5,730 nt of DNA from a virus. The notes under the pieces were generated by a model, which saw only the letters and a program-made list of their open reading frames with translations, had not been told where the DNA came from and did not search any database. Position numbers and translations under genes: made by a program. Numbering within the stretch: position 1 is the first letter of the stretch; every line of letters starts with the position of its first letter. Positions 1 to 5,730 of the stretch are shown here, piece by piece. Where the stretch lies: positions 1 to 5,730 of IMG/VR virus record IMGVR_UViG_3300045988_002368; one strand, given 5' to 3'.

Positions 1-55
1 CCTTTGTCTTGCATTGTTCCATAAAATCTGTGTTTTCGTACTTTAGCCGGTTTTC
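1..55. repeat. Terminal redundancy, copy 1 (identical to 5676..5730). It marks the closure of a circular genome.
   Basis: A base-by-base comparison of cctttgtcttgcattgttccataaaatctgtgttttcgtactttagccggttttc at both ends shows an exact 55-nt match. Confidence 0.95.
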
Positions 56-976
56 CGCGATTGCCGCTGTTTGTCTGTTTTGCTTAATTCTCCACAATCT
101 TTGTGGATTTTCCGCTTCCATCATTTTTTCGTAATAACGTGGAATTTGTGCGTGTTTGCCGTTTGTACATTGGATGTATCCTTGTCTCCAGATTTCTGCT
201 TTGTGCTCTTGATAGTAGTGGTCTCCTAAGCCCGGCTTAAGGCTCATACATGCAAAAGGCTTTTGTTGCCCTAGTTCGTAGTATGCGTTTGCCTTCTGGC
301 CGTCTATCTCGTACATTTTTTTGGTAACGTATCCTGCAACATATCTATATGTCTCTGGTACTGCTTGTGCTATTTGTATTTGACCCATGCCCCATAGGTT
401 TGCTAGCCATTCACTTGTGAAATATCCGTTGTGTTGTATCTTGTATAGGTGCTTCAAATCTGTTGGTTGCCATCCGTATAGTATCATATGATAGTGCGGT
501 CTTGCTGTTTGTTCTCCGTACTCTCCCGCCACAAAATAGCGTAATTTGCCCCTGTAAGCTTTTCTAAGGCGTTTTAAGAATTTTTGAACATCAGTATACA
601 GCAAAGTTTGGACGCTTTCAGGACTCTCCTCTCCCGGTTTCCAGGCGTATTGTACTTTTCGCATGATTTCGCCTGTGTTTACTATCATGCCCGGTACATG
701 GTCGTCGTCGTAGGTCAATGTTATAAACCAAACTTCTTCTCTTGGATAGTCTCGTGCTTCTAATTCTATTCTTGTTGTCCAGTCCTCTCTTTGTCTGATT
801 CTGCATCCTATACATTGCCCGCATGGTATCAACATGACATCTTTTCTATACATCAAATCTTCATACTTGAGCTGTTTCCCGCTTATTTCAGAAAAACGGG
901 AGAGTGAATACACCCTCCCGCTGATGTTTTTGTTTTTCGGGTTGTACAGCCTTATTAATGGCTTGTAACAACTCAT
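1..976 (-). CDS. Replication initiation protein (Microviridae VP4 / phiX174 gpA-like HUH rolling-circle endonuclease). This is the N-terminal 325 codons plus 1 nt. The ORF runs off the window start and continues on the circle at 5675..5632, giving 339 aa in total.
   Basis: Hand translation of the minus strand from ATG 976..974 gives MSCYKPLIRLYNPKNKNISGRVYSLSRFSEISGKQLKYEDLMYRKDVMLIPCGQCIGCRIRQREDWTTRIELEARDYPREEVWFITLTYDDDHVPG... with no stop down to position 1. RCR motif I is FITLTY (727..710). The HUH motif is RPHYHMILYG (HYH at 496..488). The double-tyrosine motif is YVAGYVTKK (343..317), compared with phiX174 gpA YVAKYVNK from memory. The PCGQCIGCR cysteine cluster is typical of gokushovirus VP4. 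The ATG overlaps the VP2 stop as ATGA (976..973). The ORF is missing from the supplied track, probably because it is open at the window edge. Confidence 0.9.
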   Translation of the reverse strand, partial: MSCYKPLIRLYNPKNKNISGRVYSLSRFSEISGKQLKYEDLMYRKDVMLIPCGQCIGCRIRQREDWTTRIELEARDYPREEVWFITLTYDDDHVPGMIVNTGEIMRKVQYAWKPGEESPESVQTLLYTDVQKFLKRLRKAYRGKLRYFVAGEYGEQTARPHYHMILYGWQPTDLKHLYKIQHNGYFTSEWLANLWGMGQIQIAQAVPETYRYVAGYVTKKMYEIDGQKANAYYELGQQKPFACMSLKPGLGDHYYQEHKAEIWRQGYIQCTNGKHAQIPRYYEKMMEAENPQRLWRIKQNRQTAAIAENRLKYENTDFMEQCKTK

Positions 977-1866
977 CTTAAATAATCACCTGGCTTTCGT
1001 TTTTCTCCGTATGTTCCAGTTTTGTCTTGTGGTTTTATTGCTCTGCTCTCGCCCGTTTTTGACTTTTTCGTTTCGCCACCGCCGGTTGCTTTCGGTACGG
1101 TTGCTTCTGTCTTTTCCATGGCTTTGTACGTTTTTAACAGGTCATCTACAAGTGCTTTTGGAGTGCTGTGACTTGTGCTTAGCTGACTTCCAACGGCTTC
1201 TGCAAGCTGATACCATTGTGAGTTGCTTTCCGACCGGCTGAAATAGCTTGTTGGCACGTTGCCATTCATTGTTGATACGCCTAGTGCGCTTGATGATGGC
1301 ATTCCCATGCTTGCGCCTGTAATTGTTGCTCCTGAGCCTCCTGGTGTGCTTGCTCCTCCGTTTGCGAATGCTAAAATAGGATTTAGTCCTGCTTTTCGCA
1401 TATCTTCCACGGCGCGTTGGTAGCTTGTATTGCTCATGCGCTCTTGGAAGTTTCTGTTTGCTAGCGCTTCGGCGCTGTTATAGTTCATTGCCGCATTTTG
1501 TTCGATGTGGTTATAGATTCCCTGTTGGATTGCTCCTAACGTGTTGTAACCCATCTGCATTAGCATGTTTTGGCGATTTGTTTTGCTTTGAAATGCGTTT
1601 TGCCCACCTTGCCAGCTGTAAAAACGGTCTAGATATTCCATGATTTTTTCGTCGTTTGTGCCGCCTTCACTGCTTGAACTGCTTATTCCACCGCCTTGAC
1701 TTTGACTTTGATTCCATCCTTGGCTTTGGCTGTCTGAGGTTTGTCCGAATTGGCTTGCTAGCCCTTTTCCTGCTAGCGTTAATGCGCTTGTTACTACTTG
1801 TGGATTGTTTGCGAGCCAGCTTCCAACGGCTTTTGCTCCTGCTCCTAGTGTTCCTAGTATCGACAT
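973..1866 (-). CDS. Minor capsid / DNA pilot protein (gokushovirus VP2-like, functional analogue of phiX174 H), 297 aa.
   Basis: The ORF is in the supplied track. It sits immediately after the major capsid gene. It has a Gly/Ala-rich hydrophobic N-terminus (MSILGTLGAGAKAVGSWLANN), and the segment SYQRAVEDMRKAGLNPILA contains the AGLNP-type motif I associate with microvirus VP2/pilot proteins. Its stop overlaps the Rep ATG. Confidence 0.8.
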   Translation of the reverse strand: MSILGTLGAGAKAVGSWLANNPQVVTSALTLAGKGLASQFGQTSDSQSQGWNQSQSQGGGISSSSSEGGTNDEKIMEYLDRFYSWQGGQNAFQSKTNRQNMLMQMGYNTLGAIQQGIYNHIEQNAAMNYNSAEALANRNFQERMSNTSYQRAVEDMRKAGLNPILAFANGGASTPGGSGATITGASMGMPSSSALGVSTMNGNVPTSYFSRSESNSQWYQLAEAVGSQLSTSHSTPKALVDDLLKTYKAMEKTEATVPKATGGGETKKSKTGESRAIKPQDKTGTYGEKRKPGDYLR

Positions 1867-1867
1867 T

Positions 1868-1894
1868 CAAAAATAGCCCGGATTTCTCCGGGCT
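1868..1894 (-). terminator. Intrinsic terminator / attenuator-like hairpin between VP1 and VP2.
   Basis: The minus strand reads AGCCCGGA-GAAA-TCCGGGCT (1894..1875), an 8-bp G+C-rich stem with a GNRA-type tetraloop. It is followed directly by ATTTTTG (1874..1868) and then the VP2 ATG (1866). Confidence 0.6.
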
Positions 1895-1904
1895 TCCTCC
1901 TTTC

Positions 1905-3554
1905 TTACAGTTTGTACAAGCCCGGTACACTGTATAGCGGCATCCGTCTTGTGGTTTTGTTTGCTACTCGGATTGCACCGAAAAATTGGGGCTCGTTTTG
2001 TACGATTAACGTTCTTGCGATTTCTGCTTTTCCTTCTGCCATCCAGCTTTGTGACAGTGTTGGCACGGCCGAATAGTTGTCGGCGTAATGCCAAAAATCC
2101 AGACTTCCGGTTGCATTGCTTCGCATTTTGCCCGATACTCGGTTAGGCTTCATTCTATAGTCTGCCCAAGCTTCCTGATAGCCAAACGTTTCCTCGTCTT
2201 CTGCCGTGCCGGTAAGCATGATTTCTTTTTTCTTTACTGGTTGTTCTCCCAAGTTGGCAAATTGTGGTACATAGTAGTCCAATCTGTCTTCTCTGCTCCA
2301 GAAACGTTCCAAGCCTTGTTGGTAACTGTGATTGTGTCGCACACAGCACACACCAATGATAAAACCGTGTTCTTCAAACGATTTGGTAAAGCTACTTTCG
2401 TTGATTGGTGTTACTGACATTGCACCGGTTTCACCAATCGGTGTATCCGTGTCGGTCTGTTGTCCGCTTGTCTGCACGATTTGATTCATATTTACATGGT
2501 ATCTTCCACCGCCAAGGTATTCCGGCACCTGTACGGTTTTGTCGCTGATTACCACGTTCCATAGTGCCTGTACCTGTTCGCGGTAACGGCTACCGCCTCT
2601 TGCGAGTGCCTCATAATACTGCTGTACTGCTACGGCTTTTCTTAGATCGTTGATTGTTGCTGTCGTTACGCTGCCGAGATCTGTGCCGAGATATGCTGTT
2701 TCTGCCCCTTGGATTCCGCTACTTGCTACTATTGCCGGTCTTTTTCCGGTTGTTTCTGTCGTATTGTAAATTTCTCCGTTCTGGTATAGTTTAATTGTGC
2801 CTGCCGCGGCCTTTTCGTTGGTCAGTTCGATGTTTTCATACAGTTTCACTGCCGCATTACCTTCCATCGGCAGTGACACAGCCGGCCCGCGTTGCGGATA
2901 AGGCAAACAGCTTGAGAAGTAGTCGTGGAAACGGTTTACCGGAAGACATCGCCCTCCGTTGATTGCGTTCTTCAGGTTCTCTTCAATTTTATTTTCATCT
3001 TGTGTGTCTTGGTAATTTATGTCTTCGCTGTTATTTTTCCACACTGCCGCATTGTCTACATTTTCGTCTCTGAAAAATTCATTCCAAATCATGACATAAG
3101 CGCGAATTGGCAAGGCGTTTACTGTAAAAGTTGCTTTTACTTTTGTTGGTACGCCCATGTAGTCTAGGATTGATGCTTCGTATGGATATCCGTTTTTTTC
3201 CGTTCCGTTTATTTTTATTTTTGGTACTTTGTAATTTTTTGTTGGCATCCATGGAGTACTCTCAACTTCTCCCATGAACTGTTTGAAATCACTCCACAGG
3301 ATACGGTTTGGACAATAGAAATAGTAGAAATCGATGAACGCGTCATCGAAAACAGGATATTTGGGTGTCGTCATTCTGATGATTGCCGCTGTGTCTACGT
3401 TGAAGGTATCGCCCGGCAATACTTCGTCAACATAGAACGGAATCAGTTTGCCGGAATCGAACGTTGTTAAAATCGTCTGGTCACGGTTAAAACGTGTTCG
3501 ACTTGCTTTCATTTCCGGAATCTGGTTAAAGTGTCGTTCATTGTTTCTGTTCAT
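1905..3554 (-). CDS. Major capsid protein (Microviridae VP1 / phiX174 F family), 549 aa.
   Basis: This is the longest ORF. The N-terminus MNRNNERHFNQIPEMKASRTRFNRDQTILTTFDSGKLIPFYVDEVLPGDTF matches the conserved gokushovirus VP1 N-terminal pattern (basic stretch, R-x-x-F, TTF-x-x-G-x-LIP, PGDTF). A Shine-Dalgarno sequence GGAGGAAGAGAATAA precedes the ATG, which abuts the VP3 stop. Confidence 0.95.
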   Translation of the reverse strand: MNRNNERHFNQIPEMKASRTRFNRDQTILTTFDSGKLIPFYVDEVLPGDTFNVDTAAIIRMTTPKYPVFDDAFIDFYYFYCPNRILWSDFKQFMGEVESTPWMPTKNYKVPKIKINGTEKNGYPYEASILDYMGVPTKVKATFTVNALPIRAYVMIWNEFFRDENVDNAAVWKNNSEDINYQDTQDENKIEENLKNAINGGRCLPVNRFHDYFSSCLPYPQRGPAVSLPMEGNAAVKLYENIELTNEKAAAGTIKLYQNGEIYNTTETTGKRPAIVASSGIQGAETAYLGTDLGSVTTATINDLRKAVAVQQYYEALARGGSRYREQVQALWNVVISDKTVQVPEYLGGGRYHVNMNQIVQTSGQQTDTDTPIGETGAMSVTPINESSFTKSFEEHGFIIGVCCVRHNHSYQQGLERFWSREDRLDYYVPQFANLGEQPVKKKEIMLTGTAEDEETFGYQEAWADYRMKPNRVSGKMRSNATGSLDFWHYADNYSAVPTLSQSWMAEGKAEIARTLIVQNEPQFFGAIRVANKTTRRMPLYSVPGLYKL

Positions 3555-3995
3555 TTATTCTCTTCCTCCTTCTTTTTCTTTTTTTGTTCCGGTTTCATAT
3601 GCCGCTTGCTGGTCATATTCTTTTTTGTATTTGCTTTCTTCTTCTTCTGCTTTTTTCAGTTCTTCAAGTTTCATGGCGTTTGCCTGTGCGGTCGCAATCA
3701 TACGATAATATTCGTGAATGTTTTGCGGAAATTCGGTGATATCTACTTCTGTTCCTTCCATTGCTCCTTCTGACAGACTTTTTAGAAATTGCGGGTCAAA
3801 GCTTGCTTTTCGGACAATGTTTTTGATATCACATTCGTCTGCATAACTTTCAATTTCTTGCTGGATGTCAATTGGTGTTGTTTCTTGTAAGACTTCGTCT
3901 CCTTTATCGTCTTTTGTCCAGACGTATTGTTTTTGGATTTTTTCTCCTGATTCAGAAAAGAAGGGCTTTCGCCCTTCCTCATATCGTTTATTCAT
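3555..3995 (-). CDS. Internal scaffolding protein (gokushovirus VP3-like), 146 aa. The start is moved to ATG 3995..3993.
   Basis: Translation gives MNKRYEEGRKPFFSESGEKIQKQYVWTKDDKGDEVLQETTPIDIQQEIESYADECDIKNIVRK... The ECDI-x-NI segment and the acidic, coiled-coil C-terminus fit the Chlamydia-phage VP3 scaffold family as I recall it. The sequence GGGAGGG (4009..4003) lies about 8 nt upstream of this ATG. The longer 182-aa reading in the track would overlap the upstream gene and has no ribosome-binding site. Confidence 0.75.
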   Translation of the reverse strand: MNKRYEEGRKPFFSESGEKIQKQYVWTKDDKGDEVLQETTPIDIQQEIESYADECDIKNIVRKASFDPQFLKSLSEGAMEGTEVDITEFPQNIHEYYRMIATAQANAMKLEELKKAEEEESKYKKEYDQQAAYETGTKKEKEGGRE

Positions 3996-4227
3996 TCGGC
4001 TTGCCCTCCCATACCTTTTCGGTATTATTTGTGAATGTGCCGAGTTCATCTTCAAACACTGCCAGTTTAAAGCCGGTGTAGTCGCCCGGTGCCTGTCCGA
4101 CAAACGTTTTTTCGTCCTTTGCCATCACATTACACATACGTGCGAACGTTGCGTTGTTTTTGCTCTCGCCTACCCATGCGTAGCACTTTGCCACGCTATC
4201 CCACAGGCCAAAGTATTCATGTTTCAT
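3988..4227 (-). CDS. Small conserved-looking non-structural protein, 79 aa (possibly ORF5/VP5-type). Function unknown.
   Basis: An AAGGAGA Shine-Dalgarno sequence lies upstream of ATG 4227. The stop (3990..3988) overlaps the VP3 start by 8 nt. The pattern YFGLWDSVAKCYAWVGESKNNATFARMCNVMAKDE...PGDYTGFKLAVFEDELGTF resembles the F-x-V-x-D-x-K-A...A-x-R-x-F...P-x-D-y-x-L...G-x-F-D small-protein family common in gokushoviruses. This is from memory and was not searched. Confidence 0.65.
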   Translation of the reverse strand: MKHEYFGLWDSVAKCYAWVGESKNNATFARMCNVMAKDEKTFVGQAPGDYTGFKLAVFEDELGTFTNNTEKVWEGKPNE

Positions 4228-4246
4228 GATATTTGTTCTCCTTTTT

Positions 4247-4369
4247 TTACAGGCGGATGCCGCCTCTCATAGGCTTCTGACTGAGGTTGATTGTTTTGGT
4301 TTTTCGTGCGGTTACGTTGAACATGCGGCGGTCTTTTCCGCCGCTCATCTTCTTACGATGCTGTGCCAT
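4247..4369 (-). CDS. Small basic DNA-binding / packaging protein (gokushovirus ORF8/VP8-like, analogue of phiX174 J), 40 aa. It is not in the supplied ORF track.
   Basis: Hand translation gives MAQHRKKMSGGKDRRMFNVTARKTKTINLSQKPMRGGIRL*. It has 12 K/R residues and 1 acidic residue in 40. The C-terminal MRGGIRL matches what I recall for chlamydiaphage ORF8-type peptides. GGAG (4380..4377) lies 7 nt upstream of ATG 4369..4367. The gene overlaps the upstream ORF end by 17 nt. The TAA stop is at 4249..4247. Confidence 0.75.
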   Translation of the reverse strand: MAQHRKKMSGGKDRRMFNVTARKTKTINLSQKPMRGGIRL

Positions 4370-4580
4370 TGTTATACTCCCTTCGCATTAGTTCCATTTC
4401 GATGCTGTTTGCAAAACTTTTCATTTGCCAAATTTCATCCATGAGCTTTTTAGCATCTTCAATGTTTGACACTTTTTTAACCATTTTGTAATTGCCATCG
4501 ATTTCTTTGTATTTTCGTTCGAGTAGTTTTTCTAGTTCTTCTTTGGGCTCATCACGTACATTCCATGTTTTTTGCATCAT
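4353..4580 (-). CDS. Hypothetical protein, 75 aa, highly charged and predicted helical (ORFan).
   Basis: Translation gives MMQKTWNVRDEPKEELEKLLERKYKEIDGNYKMVKKVSNIEDAKKLMDEIWQMKSFANSIEMELMRREYNNGTAS. An AAAGGAG Shine-Dalgarno sequence lies 7 nt upstream of ATGATG (4580..4575). It sits 4 nt after the preceding stop, and the gene packing is consistent with real coding. I recognise no family motif. Confidence 0.55.
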   Translation of the reverse strand: MMQKTWNVRDEPKEELEKLLERKYKEIDGNYKMVKKVSNIEDAKKLMDEIWQMKSFANSIEMELMRREYNNGTAS

Positions 4581-4584
4581 AGCT

Positions 4585-4701
4585 TTACTCCTTTTCATTG
4601 TTGCTATCGTGCAGTGCGTGGTAGATTTCGTCAAGCTTTTCGAGAATCTTCATCATAAGTTGGATTGCTTGCTTGACGTCTTTAATGGAAATCAGTGCCA
4701 T
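4585..4701 (-). CDS. Hypothetical micro-protein, 38 aa, single amphipathic helix (ORFan).
   Basis: Translation gives MALISIKDVKQAIQLMMKILEKLDEIYHALHDSNNEKE. The sequence AAAGGGGG lies 6 nt upstream of ATG 4701..4699. That ATG is 1 nt after the peptidase TAA (4705..4703). The longer 69-aa reading in the track overlaps the peptidase out of frame and lacks a ribosome-binding site. Confidence 0.45.
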   Translation of the reverse strand: MALISIKDVKQAIQLMMKILEKLDEIYHALHDSNNEKE

Positions 4702-4702
4702 T

Positions 4703-5095
4703 TTATACCCCCTTTCTGTATTTCGCTTTACGCACATCAAAGTGCACCCAGCTTTTGTATACGATAATGCCGCATTCATCCGGTACAATTTCATTCAGCT
4801 TGTTGGCAAGTTCTTTTGCGCTTATTCCATTAACTCGAATGTCTGCCGCCATACCGCGCATGTGGTAGCTGTATTTTGCTCCGTTGCATTTTTTGTTCCA
4901 CTCCGGCGTCCTGTATCCGCTAGTGATAACTACCGGCTTTCCTAGTTTATTTCGTAGAATGTCCAGGATGGTGTATAAGTATTCGTCAATGAAAACTATT
5001 GGACTTCCGTCTTTACAAGCAAATTCTTTTACTTTGAAGTGTCTTGTAAGCTGTATGTTTCCGTCAGTGTCTACAAGGTAGCTTTTAATGCTCAT
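4703..5095 (-). CDS. Zinc D-Ala-D-Ala carboxypeptidase-type peptidoglycan hydrolase (peptidase M15A / Peptidase_M15_3, YcbK-like fold), 130 aa. Putative endolysin.
   Basis: Translation gives MSIKSYLVDTDGNIQLTRHFKVKEFACKDGSPIVFIDEYLYTILDILRNKLGKPVVITSGYRTPEWNKKCNGAKYSYHMRGMAADIRVNG...SWVHFDVR. Family hallmarks are present: F-x-x-x-EF-x-C, SGYR, H-x6-D (H78 at 4864..4862, D85 at 4843..4841) and a terminal V-H-x-D (H118 at 4744..4742). This is a complete Zn-ligand triad. GAGGAA lies 6 nt upstream of ATG 5095..5093. The 148-aa version in the track starts at a TTG that is actually the promoter -35 box. Confidence 0.85.
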   Translation of the reverse strand: MSIKSYLVDTDGNIQLTRHFKVKEFACKDGSPIVFIDEYLYTILDILRNKLGKPVVITSGYRTPEWNKKCNGAKYSYHMRGMAADIRVNGISAKELANKLNEIVPDECGIIVYKSWVHFDVRKAKYRKGV

Positions 5096-5120
5096 GGCTG
5101 TTTCCTCGCTTTCTGTTTTA

Positions 5121-5167
5121 ATAATATCATTTTTTTTGTCGCTTGTCAATTGTTTTTTGGTTTGAAT
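5121..5167 (-). promoter_or_regulatory. Near-consensus sigma70/sigmaA promoter with an extended -10 and an A-rich UP-like element. It likely drives the whole gene block.
   Basis: The minus strand reads attcaaaccaaaaaaca-a-TTGACA-agcgacaaaaaaaa-TGa-TATTAT. The -35 TTGACA is at 5149..5144, the spacer is 17 nt, TG is at 5129..5128, and the -10 TATTAT is at 5126..5121. The predicted start site near 5114 gives a leader of about 19 nt carrying the peptidase Shine-Dalgarno sequence. Confidence 0.7.
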
Positions 5168-5242
5168 GGCGCTTTAGCGCCTTGCCGTGCGTAGCGTATG
5201 CGGAGCTCGGCTAATCCATTCCTTGTAAGCGCTGTGCGCGTT

Positions 5243-5414
5243 TTCAACACTTTCAACATTTTCAACAAGTTTTCAACAAAATGTTGCACAATTATTTTGG
5301 TCATTTTGACGGACTTTCAACAATTCAACAAGTTTTCAACAAATCTTTCAACTTTCTTTTTGGTGCTTTTTCTTTGTATCTACGTAAAGAAAAAGCACTT
5401 ATCAACTTTTCAAC
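5243..5414. repeat. Iteron array of ten TTCAAC(A) repeats, arranged as two clusters of four plus a pair.
   Basis: TTCAACA occurs at 5243, 5252, 5261 and 5272, and at 5316, 5324 and 5335. TTCAACT occurs at 5347. ATCAAC is at 5401 and TTCAAC at 5409. Spacing within clusters is 8-12 nt. The longer unit CAACAAGTT occurs three times (5264, 5327, 5435). Confidence 0.85.
5363..5398. other. Perfect 13-bp inverted repeat (hairpin/cruciform) embedded in the iteron array.
   Basis: GTGCTTTTTCTTT (5363..5375) is followed by the loop GTATCTACGT (5376..5385) and then AAAGAAAAAGCAC (5386..5398). All 13 pairs were checked individually. Confidence 0.85.
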
Positions 5415-5502
5415 TGTTCCTACTACGTCTACTACAACAAGTTATATATACCCCAAACACCCCTTGAAGCGTAGCGAATAGGGGTAGGGGTAGAACGTAC
5501 TC

Positions 5503-5545
5503 CGTGCGCGCACGCGTGCGCGCTTCGTGCGCGTGTGCGCGCGCG
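5503..5545. repeat. G+C-rich strictly alternating pyrimidine/purine tract (Z-DNA/cruciform-prone) containing an 18-bp perfect palindrome.
   Basis: 5503..5523 (21 nt) and 5526..5545 (20 nt) alternate Y-R without exception and are separated by TT. GCGCGCACGCGTGCGCGC (5506..5523) is its own reverse complement. 35 of 43 bases are G or C. Confidence 0.85.
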
Positions 5546-5547
5546 AA

Positions 5548-5571
5548 ATAGGCTGTTTATCTTATAGGCTG
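5548..5571. repeat. Direct repeat ATAGGCTG x2, 16 nt apart, between the G+C tract and the post-Rep hairpin.
   Basis: ATAGGCTG is at 5548..5555 and again at 5564..5571. TTTATC (5556..5561) and GATAAA (5571..5576) also form a short inverted repeat around the second copy. Confidence 0.5.
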
Positions 5572-5580
5572 ATAAAGTGA

Positions 5581-5613
5581 TAGCCCAGTACTTACTTGAT
5601 AGGTACTGGGCTA
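5581..5613 (-). terminator. Long hairpin 18 nt downstream of the Rep stop. It is a possible end-of-operon terminator and/or an origin hairpin.
   Basis: TAGCCCAGTAC (5581..5591) pairs perfectly with GTACTGGGCTA (5603..5613). The stem can extend by T.G, T-A and A-T to leave the 5-nt loop CTTGA (5595..5599). On the minus-strand RNA it is followed by UCACUUUAUC, which is only a weak U-tract. Confidence 0.4.
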
Positions 5614-5631
5614 GGTGACACCATGACACTG

Positions 5632-5730
5632 TTATAGTGTCCCTCTTTTTTTCATTTGCTTTTTGATTACTCTCTCCTTTGTCTTGCATTGTTCCATAAA
5701 ATCTGTGTTTTCGTACTTTAGCCGGTTTTC
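5632..5730 (-). CDS. C-terminal end of the same VP4 replication initiator. 5676..5730 duplicates 1..55, and the unique tail is 5675..5632 including the TAA stop at 5634..5632.
   Basis: Reading on from position 1 across the junction in the same frame gives ...NTDFMEQCKTKERVIKKQMKKRGTL*. The frame arithmetic closes: 976 nt + 44 nt = 1020 nt = 340 codons. Confidence 0.85.
   Translation of the reverse strand, partial: ENRLKYENTDFMEQCKTKERVIKKQMKKRGTL
5676..5730. repeat. Terminal redundancy, copy 2 (identical to 1..55).
   Basis: As for copy 1. The implied unit length is 5,675 nt. Confidence 0.95.

Follow-up and report, generated by a model that had tools for sequence, protein, structure and literature searches.

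The stretch analysed here (the window: 5,730 nucleotides, positions 1 to 5,730 of IMG/VR record IMGVR_UViG_3300045988_002368) is the circular genome of a gokushovirus, 5675 nt long and with 55 nt of terminal redundancy. Every gene is encoded on the minus strand of the window, and the sole long noncoding region (5096-5631, 536 nt) lies between the Rep and peptidase genes. An earlier sequence-only reading gave this noncoding stretch as 5150-5631, which is correct for the part upstream of the promoter. The region contains a phased array of direct repeats belonging to an element of about 210 bp at 5241-5450, referred to below as the cassette (Table 1). The cassette resembles part of the chromosomal replication origin of gut Oscillospiraceae/Ruminococcus.

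Table 1. Features of the cassette and of the surrounding genome. Column identities are from an alignment of 13 diverse, divergent phages; box offsets are counted from the first trio (first CTA) in 90 phage genomes.
Feature	Position	Strand	Box offsets	Column identity	Description
GC-rich left cassette boundary	5228..5240				GCGCTGTGCGCG
DnaA-box cluster 1	5241..5278	+	-179, -170, -161, -150	0.87 (mean)	Head-to-tail 9-mers TTTTCAACA at 5241, CTTTCAACA at 5250, TTTTCAACA at 5259, TTTTCAACA at 5270
Inter-cluster spacer	5279..5313	+		0.71	AAATGTTGCACAAT...; conserved among close relatives only
DnaA-box cluster 2	5314..5353	+	-106, -98, -87, -75	0.89	Four 9-mers at 5314, 5322, 5333, 5345
Perfect 13-bp inverted repeat	5363..5398			0.64	Stem 5363-5375 / 5386-5398
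Tandem DnaA-box pair	5399..5415	+	-21, -13		TTATCAACT 5399-5407, TTTTCAACT 5407-5415, 1-nt overlap; -13 box in relatives mostly TTTTCCAC(A/T)
4-nt spacer	5416..5419	+			GTTC; separates box pair from trios
DnaA-trio run	5420..5434	+		0.93	CTA CTA CGT CTA CTA; complement carries 3'-GAT-5'
Near-invariant 9-mer	5435..5443	+		0.97	CAACAAGTT (AACTTGTTG on coding strand); between trios and AT-rich stretch
AT-rich stretch	5444..5450				ATATATA (ATATATAATA in relatives); candidate DNA-unwinding element
Right boundary of cassette region	5498..5550				GC-rich alternating purine-pyrimidine imperfect palindrome
Conserved hairpin right after Rep stop	5581..5622	+			TAGCCCAGTAC-TTACTTGATAG-GTACTGGGCTA, then flank GGTGACACC; candidate rolling-circle (Rep) origin
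Sigma-70-type promoter	5121..5149	minus			TTGACA 5149-5144, 17-nt spacer, TGnTATTAT ending 5121
VP4/Rep (HUH Rep)	from 976, across junction, stop codon 5632-5634	minus			
Peptidase M15 gene	5095-4703	minus			Peptidase_M15_3, E = 5e-22
Three small open reading frames (ORFs)		minus			After the peptidase M15 gene; without family match
VP5, VP3, VP1	VP1 3554-1905	minus			After the small ORFs
297-aa ORF	1866-973	minus			No Pfam match; VP2 by GenBank annotation of relatives

The hexamer TTCAAC occurs nine times on the plus strand (5243, 5252, 5261, 5272, 5316, 5324, 5335, 5347 and 5409) and has no other plus-strand copy genome-wide; a tenth copy, ATCAAC at 5401-5406, was identified by reading. Start-to-start spacings are 9, 9, 11 / 8, 11, 12 / 8. 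A 172-nt window held at most three copies in 2000 dinucleotide-preserving shuffles of the genome, and again at most three in 5000 shuffles of the noncoding region. This confirms the ten-copy, phased, one-strand array in 172 nt that was first noticed. The actual repeat unit is the 9-mer (T/C)TTTC(A/C)ACA, present as ten units in one orientation, and the functional unit reaches to about 5451, past the right-hand limit of 5414 given in the sequence-only reading. ORFs at 5198-5467 and 5281-5481 were rejected as genes, as they are artefacts of the repeats; an open frame is kept in 15% of relatives on the box strand and in none on the other strand. A promoter formed from the repeated TTGAAA hexamers, which are -35-like, was also rejected: relatives do not keep the -10 of the lone scan match (5320-5291).

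The relaxed DnaA-box consensus is TTWTNCACA, and CTA repeats are the top-strand form of DnaA-trios (3'-GAT-5'), a single-stranded DNA (ssDNA) motif bound by DnaA. The basal unwinding system (BUS) of bacterial origins was defined in the incC region of Bacillus subtilis (Richardson 2016/2019; PMC8287927; PMC6669920). In B. subtilis, Staphylococcus aureus and Streptococcus pyogenes its order is box, box, 4 nt, (CTA)n and AT-rich DNA (Pelliciari 2021, PMC8287927, Table S1). Read as the complement, the B. subtilis BUS is TTATCCACA-AATCCACA-GGCC-CTACTATTACTTCTACTA followed by A/T, and the S. aureus BUS is TTATCCACC-AATCCACA-GCAC-CTACTACTATTACTA (PMC8287927). The window reads TTATCAAC-TTTTCAACT-GTTC-CTACTACGTCTACTA-CAACAAGTT-ATATATA.

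The phage element shares with the B. subtilis BUS its order and orientation, a 17-nt overlapping box pair with starts at -21 and -13 (DnaA-boxes 6 and 7), and the 4-nt spacer; CTA/GAT trios and AT-rich DNA follow in that order, although here the trio run is interrupted and the AT-rich stretch short. In addition, the extra upstream boxes are helically phased. The strict BUS pattern was found in 0/5000 shuffles. A BUS box is allowed at most two mismatches to TTATCCACA or to a species-specific motif; TTATCAACT has two mismatches to TTATCCACA, TTTTCAACT has one to the host motif TTTTCAACA, and relatives carry TTTTCCACA in the same slot. The pair should have one orientation and face the trios, with no more than 16 nt (peak 10-13) from the well-conserved box to the first trio; both the starts and the 4-nt gap after the second box are as in B. 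subtilis. At least three consecutive trios are expected (3'-NAN-5' on the bound strand, consensus GAT), and in this genome three are reached only if the TTC of the spacer is counted. The third triplet, CGT, interrupts the run, whereas relatives and hosts have CTA x3-5, uninterrupted in most relatives. A BUS further calls for an intrinsically unstable AT-rich unwinding element beside the trios; here the AT-rich run (ATATATA, ATATATAATA in relatives) is 7-10 nt long and GC-rich DNA follows it. The phage version also differs from the BUS in residing in a 5.7-kb ssDNA phage, not beside dnaA/dnaN, in its far shorter AT-rich stretch, in the insertion of CAACAAGTT after the trios, and in being invertible and mobile between phage lineages.

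The box variant of the phage occurs in bacterial origins. The Ruminococcus albus 7 origin contains TTTTCAACA-GGT-TTTTCAACA, and that of Clostridioides difficile contains TTATCAACA (PMC8287927 Table S1). A scan of species-representative genomes for the pattern TTTTCAACA-N0-3-TTTTCAACA gave at least 120 loci; the matches listed are rich in Oscillospiraceae, Ruminococcus, Acutalibacteraceae and other Clostridia metagenome-assembled genomes (MAGs). Three Oscillospiraceae loci (L139, L165 and L183) and one from Ruminococcus (L151) have 9-13 such boxes plus TTTTCAACAGTTTCAACACCCC-CTACTACTACTACTA and AT-rich DNA. These four arrays are followed by TTTTC(A/C)AC(A/T)GTTTCAACA, 4 nt (CCCC in two), CTA/TTA x5 and AT-rich DNA. 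Pfam searches place the L139, L165 and L183 arrays between the DnaA and DnaN genes and the L151 array downstream of dnaA; the four loci are chromosomal origins.

Box offsets in the host origins (cluster at about -178, -167, -156; then -105, -97, -86; then -22, -13) are nearly equal to those of the phage. A phage profile matched the four host origins by nhmmer with E = 6.5e-18, 4.2e-13, 2.6e-11 and 7.7e-11 over profile positions 26-208; a caveat is that the four loci had been pre-selected for two boxes, although this inflates nothing beyond the first cluster. The joint alignment of phage and host sequences is collinear, and both share the box variant TTTTCAACA or TTTTCCACA and a CCCC/CTAC junction. 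They differ in that overall identity is about 65%, in a box that is inverted at -70 in the hosts but direct at -75 in the phage, and in the additional upstream clusters (9-13 boxes, about 350 bp) and long AT-rich region of the hosts. The 9-mer CAACAAGTT is absent from all four verified host origins, and is thus a phage-specific addition. Its use as a Rep site is speculation; the AACTTG that AACTTGTTG has in common with the phiX174 nick core is a lead and should not be read as evidence. Among the matches listed, 120 bacterial loci were examined, and microvirus genes are present in none. Integration of the phage into the host origin by homology was rejected on this ground and because identity of about 65% is too low.

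On the basis of these matches, the region 5241-5450 is probably (at a rough probability of 0.6) a self-contained, captured host-type origin cassette which would recruit DnaA to the double-stranded replicative form (RF) of the phage. As far as sequence can tell, the best reading is that the cassette copies the unwinding half of the dnaA-dnaN-type oriC of gut Oscillospiraceae/Ruminococcus. It is oriC-like and not an oriC; a strict chromosomal oriC lies on a chromosome beside dnaA/dnaN, and this element lies in a microvirus genome.

The cassette is widespread among relatives. GenBank contains 44 gokushoviruses which match the noncoding region, from human, pig, monkey, mink, raccoon and dog faeces; 35 of the 44 match across 5241-5450, and the cassette has been left unannotated in nearly all of them. 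Among IMG/VR genomes with a Rep at least 89% identical (n=80), the element is present in 79, which amounts to 79/79 informative genomes. The remaining genome (L014, IMGVR_UViG_3300045988_086966, 8781 nt) was considered as a cassette-less relative and rejected; it has tailed-phage portal and Mu-F genes joined exactly at the cassette site and is almost certainly an assembly chimera. The 13 aligned members share a fixed plan: two blocks of four 9-mers separated by a spacer, then a variable segment, an overlapping pair of 9-mers, some 4 nt, (CTA)n, CAACAAGTT and ATATATAATA. The 4 + 4 + 2 box layout in a single orientation holds in 90 genomes, and element length is nearly constant. Box changes are mainly A/C at position 6, and canonical TTATCCACA and TTTTCCACA occupy the same slots in relatives. 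The alignment of intergenic regions proposed in the sequence-only reading therefore shows repeat number, phase and motif all to be conserved.

Conservation is not uniform along the cassette. Column identity is 0.86-0.89 in boxes, 0.93 in trios and 0.97 in CAACAAGTT, compared with 0.54-0.71 in the spacers and hairpin segment. Tight constraint on the trios and on the geometry of the box pair favours real engagement of DnaA with an unwinding module over plain titration. Titration is the basis of the main rival explanation, a DnaA sink or sensor: the cassette would bind DnaA without firing, and the many RF copies would titrate DnaA and so block host initiation, or would couple the phage programme to the level of DnaA-ATP. 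There is precedent for such an effect, as oriC fragments on plasmids block B. subtilis initiation and the inc regions are named for this incompatibility. A sink is also consistent with the ten boxes per genome, with the short, GC-clamped AT-rich stretch, and with the inversion described below, as titration is indifferent to orientation. However, boxes alone would suffice for titration, yet the trios and pair geometry are among the most conserved parts and the whole host unwinding module is kept collinearly. The sink or sensor is accordingly considered unlikely; less likely still are promoter control, a complementary-strand origin and Rep iterons.

Distant microviruses with arrays of boxes alone also fit a sink. 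IMG/VR yielded at least 120 matches to a tandem of three canonical boxes (TTATCCACA), and among those listed there are at least seven small microviruses (4.4-4.9 kb; L238, L277, L289, L303, L307, L318 and L333) with VP1 identities of only 29-41%. These have 3-6 perfect boxes (TTATCCACA-GG repeats) at an 11-bp phase, mostly without trios. Their arrays adjoin an origin-like hairpin or sit between a promoter-like TTGAC element and the first gene; in L289, a box is followed by 4 nt and then CTACTGCTGTTA. DnaA-box arrays of more than one box type thus recur in the family.

The cassette moves independently of other parts of the genome. Cassette identity to the window is 90.5% in MT135268, where Rep and VP1 are 48% and 46% identical, and only 82-83% where Rep is 92% identical. 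It also occurs with Reps of 38-40% identity to the window Rep. Some distant relatives have the cassette in a different intergenic region (L006 and L012), between VP2 and VP4, as in KT264784 and MT121961. In 6/79 close relatives (about 8%; L030, L045, L057, L059, L067 and L074), the cassette is inverted in place. Comparison of L057, L045 and L030 with L031 shows that the inverted unit is exactly the cassette, with both flanks unchanged. The unit is bracketed by GC-rich CGCGCAC-type sequence, and the hairpin at the Rep stop keeps its orientation. One 10.7-kb contig (L037) has two cassette copies in opposite orientations. A cassette which is exchanged among divergent phages and inverts in place behaves as a portable replication/control module.

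GC-rich tracts of alternating purines and pyrimidines (CGTGCGCGCACGCGTGCGCG...) at 5498-5550 and 5228-5240 fall on the inversion boundaries; their palindromes are imperfect and their composition is Z-DNA-like. These tracts could mediate inversion, or could clamp unwinding.

Mobility and inversion bear on three further explanations. The first is that the repeats are iterons for Rep (VP4), i.e. the binding locus of a rolling-circle double-strand origin with its nick in the adjacent hairpin, as in circular Rep-encoding single-stranded (CRESS) DNA viruses and pMV158-type plasmids. The repeats are indeed direct, phased and next to a hairpin; AACTTGTTG on the coding strand contains the AACTTG of the phiX174 nick core, and the cassette contains TACTACG, which we take to be similar to the pMV158 nick sequence. 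Against this, iterons and Rep do not co-vary, as is clear from MT135268 (90.5% for the cassette, 48% for Rep), and bacterial dnaA-dnaN origins without phage genes show this motif and geometry too. The array hairpin is not conserved, and inversion of the cassette leaves the orientation of the phiX-like hairpin near Rep unchanged. Motif and positions are instead those of host DnaA boxes. Independence from Rep and from gene orientation argues against Rep iterons, which are barely credible here, and fits a double-stranded, host-factor element. From the four options listed in the sequence-only reading, a host-factor binding platform is thus favoured, with DnaA as the factor; the analogy to CRESS iterons is unsupported.

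The second explanation is transcriptional control, in which array-bound DnaA or curvature of the phased T-tracts would activate or repress the nearby strong promoter. DnaA is known to act as a transcription factor. The promoter (5149-5121) lies 92 nt from the first box, and three of the small microviruses (L238, L303 and L333) have canonical arrays directly downstream of promoter-like TTGAC and upstream of the first gene. However, inversion puts the boxes about 200 nt further from the promoter, with the AT-rich end facing it, and the cassette of KT264784 and MT121961 lies between VP2 and VP4. Neither control by DnaA nor curvature leaves a role for the trios or for the collinear match to host origins. 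This explanation is quite improbable.

In the third, the region would act as a complementary-strand origin, folding in single-stranded form and priming the second strand after infection. Every ssDNA phage requires such a signal, this genome has a strong hairpin, and a DnaA-dependent "ABC primosome" acting on a DnaA-box hairpin is known from E. coli plasmids. Nevertheless, the boxes are all direct repeats, hence not duplex in ssDNA, and the array hairpin is missing in most relatives. Single-stranded signals are strand-specific, yet the cassette occurs both ways relative to the genes and to the phiX-like hairpin. A complementary-strand origin within the cassette is therefore very improbable. The segment of about 90 nt between cassette and promoter (5150-5240) is kept in relatives whichever way the cassette faces and contains a hairpin, GGCGCTTTAGCGCC (5168-5181); a complementary-strand priming signal is one possibility for this segment.

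The perfect hairpin which the sequence-only reading described within the array is real in this genome, with a 13-bp stem (dG -12 kcal/mol, z = -8 by DNA folding). It is present in only about 5/76 distinct relatives and was rejected as a conserved structural element. In the other 71 or so it is absent or weak, the loop is not conserved, and the sequence is mostly a weak ACGC-TTTA-GCGT mini-palindrome. The hairpin is a lineage-specific elaboration of the variable spacer. The array does not adjoin a conserved nick stem-loop; the conserved hairpin lies instead at 5581-5613.

This second hairpin directly follows the Rep stop and probably serves as the rolling-circle origin. Its loop TTACTTGATAG contains ACTTGATA, which was checked to be the phiX174 nick core (AACTTG/ATA), and its flank resembles the phiX key sequence. 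The likeness to the phiX174 origin (30 nt within gene A) comprises, at 5591-5622, a hairpin loop with ACTTGATA and a flanking GACACC. Both Chp2 and a 4.1-kb Ciona microvirus have the same loop with compensating different stems; the flank GGTGACACC is identical in the Ciona virus and is GGTGATAGC in Chp2 (comparison loci: L216 2722-2762; L338 ~2905-2950). The candidate is separate from the array, which agrees with the earlier expectation that the microvirus origin would not be the array itself. The array lacks the phiX174-type arrangement of about 30 nt (nick core AACTTG/ATA, AT spacer and key sequence) and has nothing meaningful in common with the phiX174 origin; the CAAC echo of the origin core in the repeat, which had been pointed out, is coincidental.

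In this clade the phiX-like candidate reads on the non-coding strand, whereas Chp2 and the Ciona virus have it on the coding strand. The switch prompts a question about the identity of the nicked and packaged strand. Strand asymmetry in the genome is extreme: the coding strand has 38% A and 19% T, and four-fold sites of VP1 (1905-3554) have 48% A and 12% T. The coding strand of phiMH2K is likewise A-rich and that of Chp2 is the opposite (T 51%); composition does not settle which strand is packaged.

Homology and geometry relative to host origins and the B. subtilis BUS, conservation across phages, and independence from Rep and gene orientation are established by the comparisons above. From these we infer DnaA binding, unwinding and every downstream step, as follows. 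After the phage genome has been converted to supercoiled RF, host DnaA-ATP would occupy the tandem pair and both box clusters upstream of it, then oligomerise from the -21/-13 pair onto the trio strand and melt the adjoining AT-rich DNA. The opened RF would be a host-controlled entry point for helicase and primase. One outcome could be theta-type RF amplification or plasmid-like persistence; another could be an aid to Rep-driven rolling-circle replication from the phiX-like hairpin about 150 nt away.

Several observations weigh against a captured host-type origin. Firstly, the unwinding end is weak in this genome: only two perfect CTA repeats adjoin the spacer, and the AT-rich stretch is 7-10 nt long compared with about 30 nt in hosts, is flanked by GC-rich DNA and may be insufficient for helicase loading. 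Secondly, B. subtilis-type origins are bipartite and the phage has the dnaA-dnaN half only. Thirdly, the DnaA model offers no explanation for the near-invariant, phage-specific CAACAAGTT. Fourthly, the box-only arrays of the small microviruses show that selection can act on the binding of DnaA in itself, whether for regulation or for titration, and we know of no need for DnaA in a rolling-circle phage. Finally, the host assignment comes from MAGs only, and phage-host identity of about 65% implies that the true host origin is unsampled.

With regard to the neighbouring genes, the promoter matches 11/12 consensus positions, has the TG extension and precedes the gene block starting at 5095. By reading, the relative L031 has a corresponding -35/-10 pair at the same place. 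Peptidase M15, the first gene past the promoter, is likely to be a cell-wall lysis enzyme; together with strong Shine-Dalgarno sites, it fits a Firmicutes-type host. In the VP1/VP2 gap (1871-1890, minus strand), a GC-rich stem-loop, AGCCCGGAGAAATCCGGGCT, is followed by TTTTT on the coding strand, again by reading; it looks like an intrinsic terminator or attenuator within the gene block. There are no tRNAs in the window, and a search of the window against all Rfam families with E up to 1 gave a single chance match inside the Rep gene (Termite-leu, E = 0.61).

Use of host DnaA by mobile elements is well known: DnaA boxes are present in the theta origins P1 oriR, pSC101, F, RK2 and R6K, and in the datA titration locus. 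The plasmid and phage theta origins differ from the cassette in having 1-5 boxes which aid an element-encoded initiator with its own iterons. No gene for such an iteron-binding theta initiator is present among VP1, VP2, VP3, VP4, VP5, peptidase M15 and the three small ORFs. None of these origins is known to contain a full host-derived module of box pair, trios and unwinding element. Plasmid homologues of the cassette were not found, apart from 36-nt repeat matches in Acinetobacter plasmids. Closer to home, enterobacterial gokushovirus prophages reportedly mimic the host dif site, according to Kirchberger and Ochman in 2020. In both cases a gokushovirus would carry a copy of a host chromosomal cis-site to hijack a DNA-transaction machine. 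The two differ in that one is XerCD/dif integration and the other DnaA/oriC, with no integration implied here.

Searches of open-access papers and preprints found no relevant report linking DnaA, DnaA boxes or oriC with gokushoviruses, microviruses or Microviridae, or oriC-like elements with phages; a search with the motif strings gave primer sequences only. What appears to be new is not the parts, which are well known, but their presence in an ssDNA phage as a cassette that is mobile and invertible. Within the searchable literature, this would be the first virus with a DnaA-box/DnaA-trio unwinding module.

Little is known about the hosts, origins and lifestyle of gokushoviruses, which are among the most abundant and persistent human-gut phages. 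With a host-type oriC cassette, hundreds of uncultured genomes could be assigned to Oscillospiraceae/Ruminococcus from sequence. The cassette also points to a concrete route by which a "lytic" ssDNA phage could persist or amplify, through DnaA-dependent initiation on the RF or through DnaA titration. At about 210 bp and with ten boxes, it would further serve as a natural minimal origin for biochemical work on origins in hard-to-study Clostridia. A bolder version, which we regard as possible rather than probable, is that gokushoviruses of mammalian guts, or a large group of them, have captured a working miniature of the host origin and that the RF is initiated by DnaA in the manner of an oriC minichromosome. 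If this is true, these phages would have a cell-cycle-coupled, plasmid-like carrier state or DnaA-gated RF amplification, beyond Rep-driven rolling-circle replication. Host-matched DnaA-box arrays would then be a recurrent, overlooked feature of Microviridae and a direct host-prediction signal for uncultured ssDNA phages.

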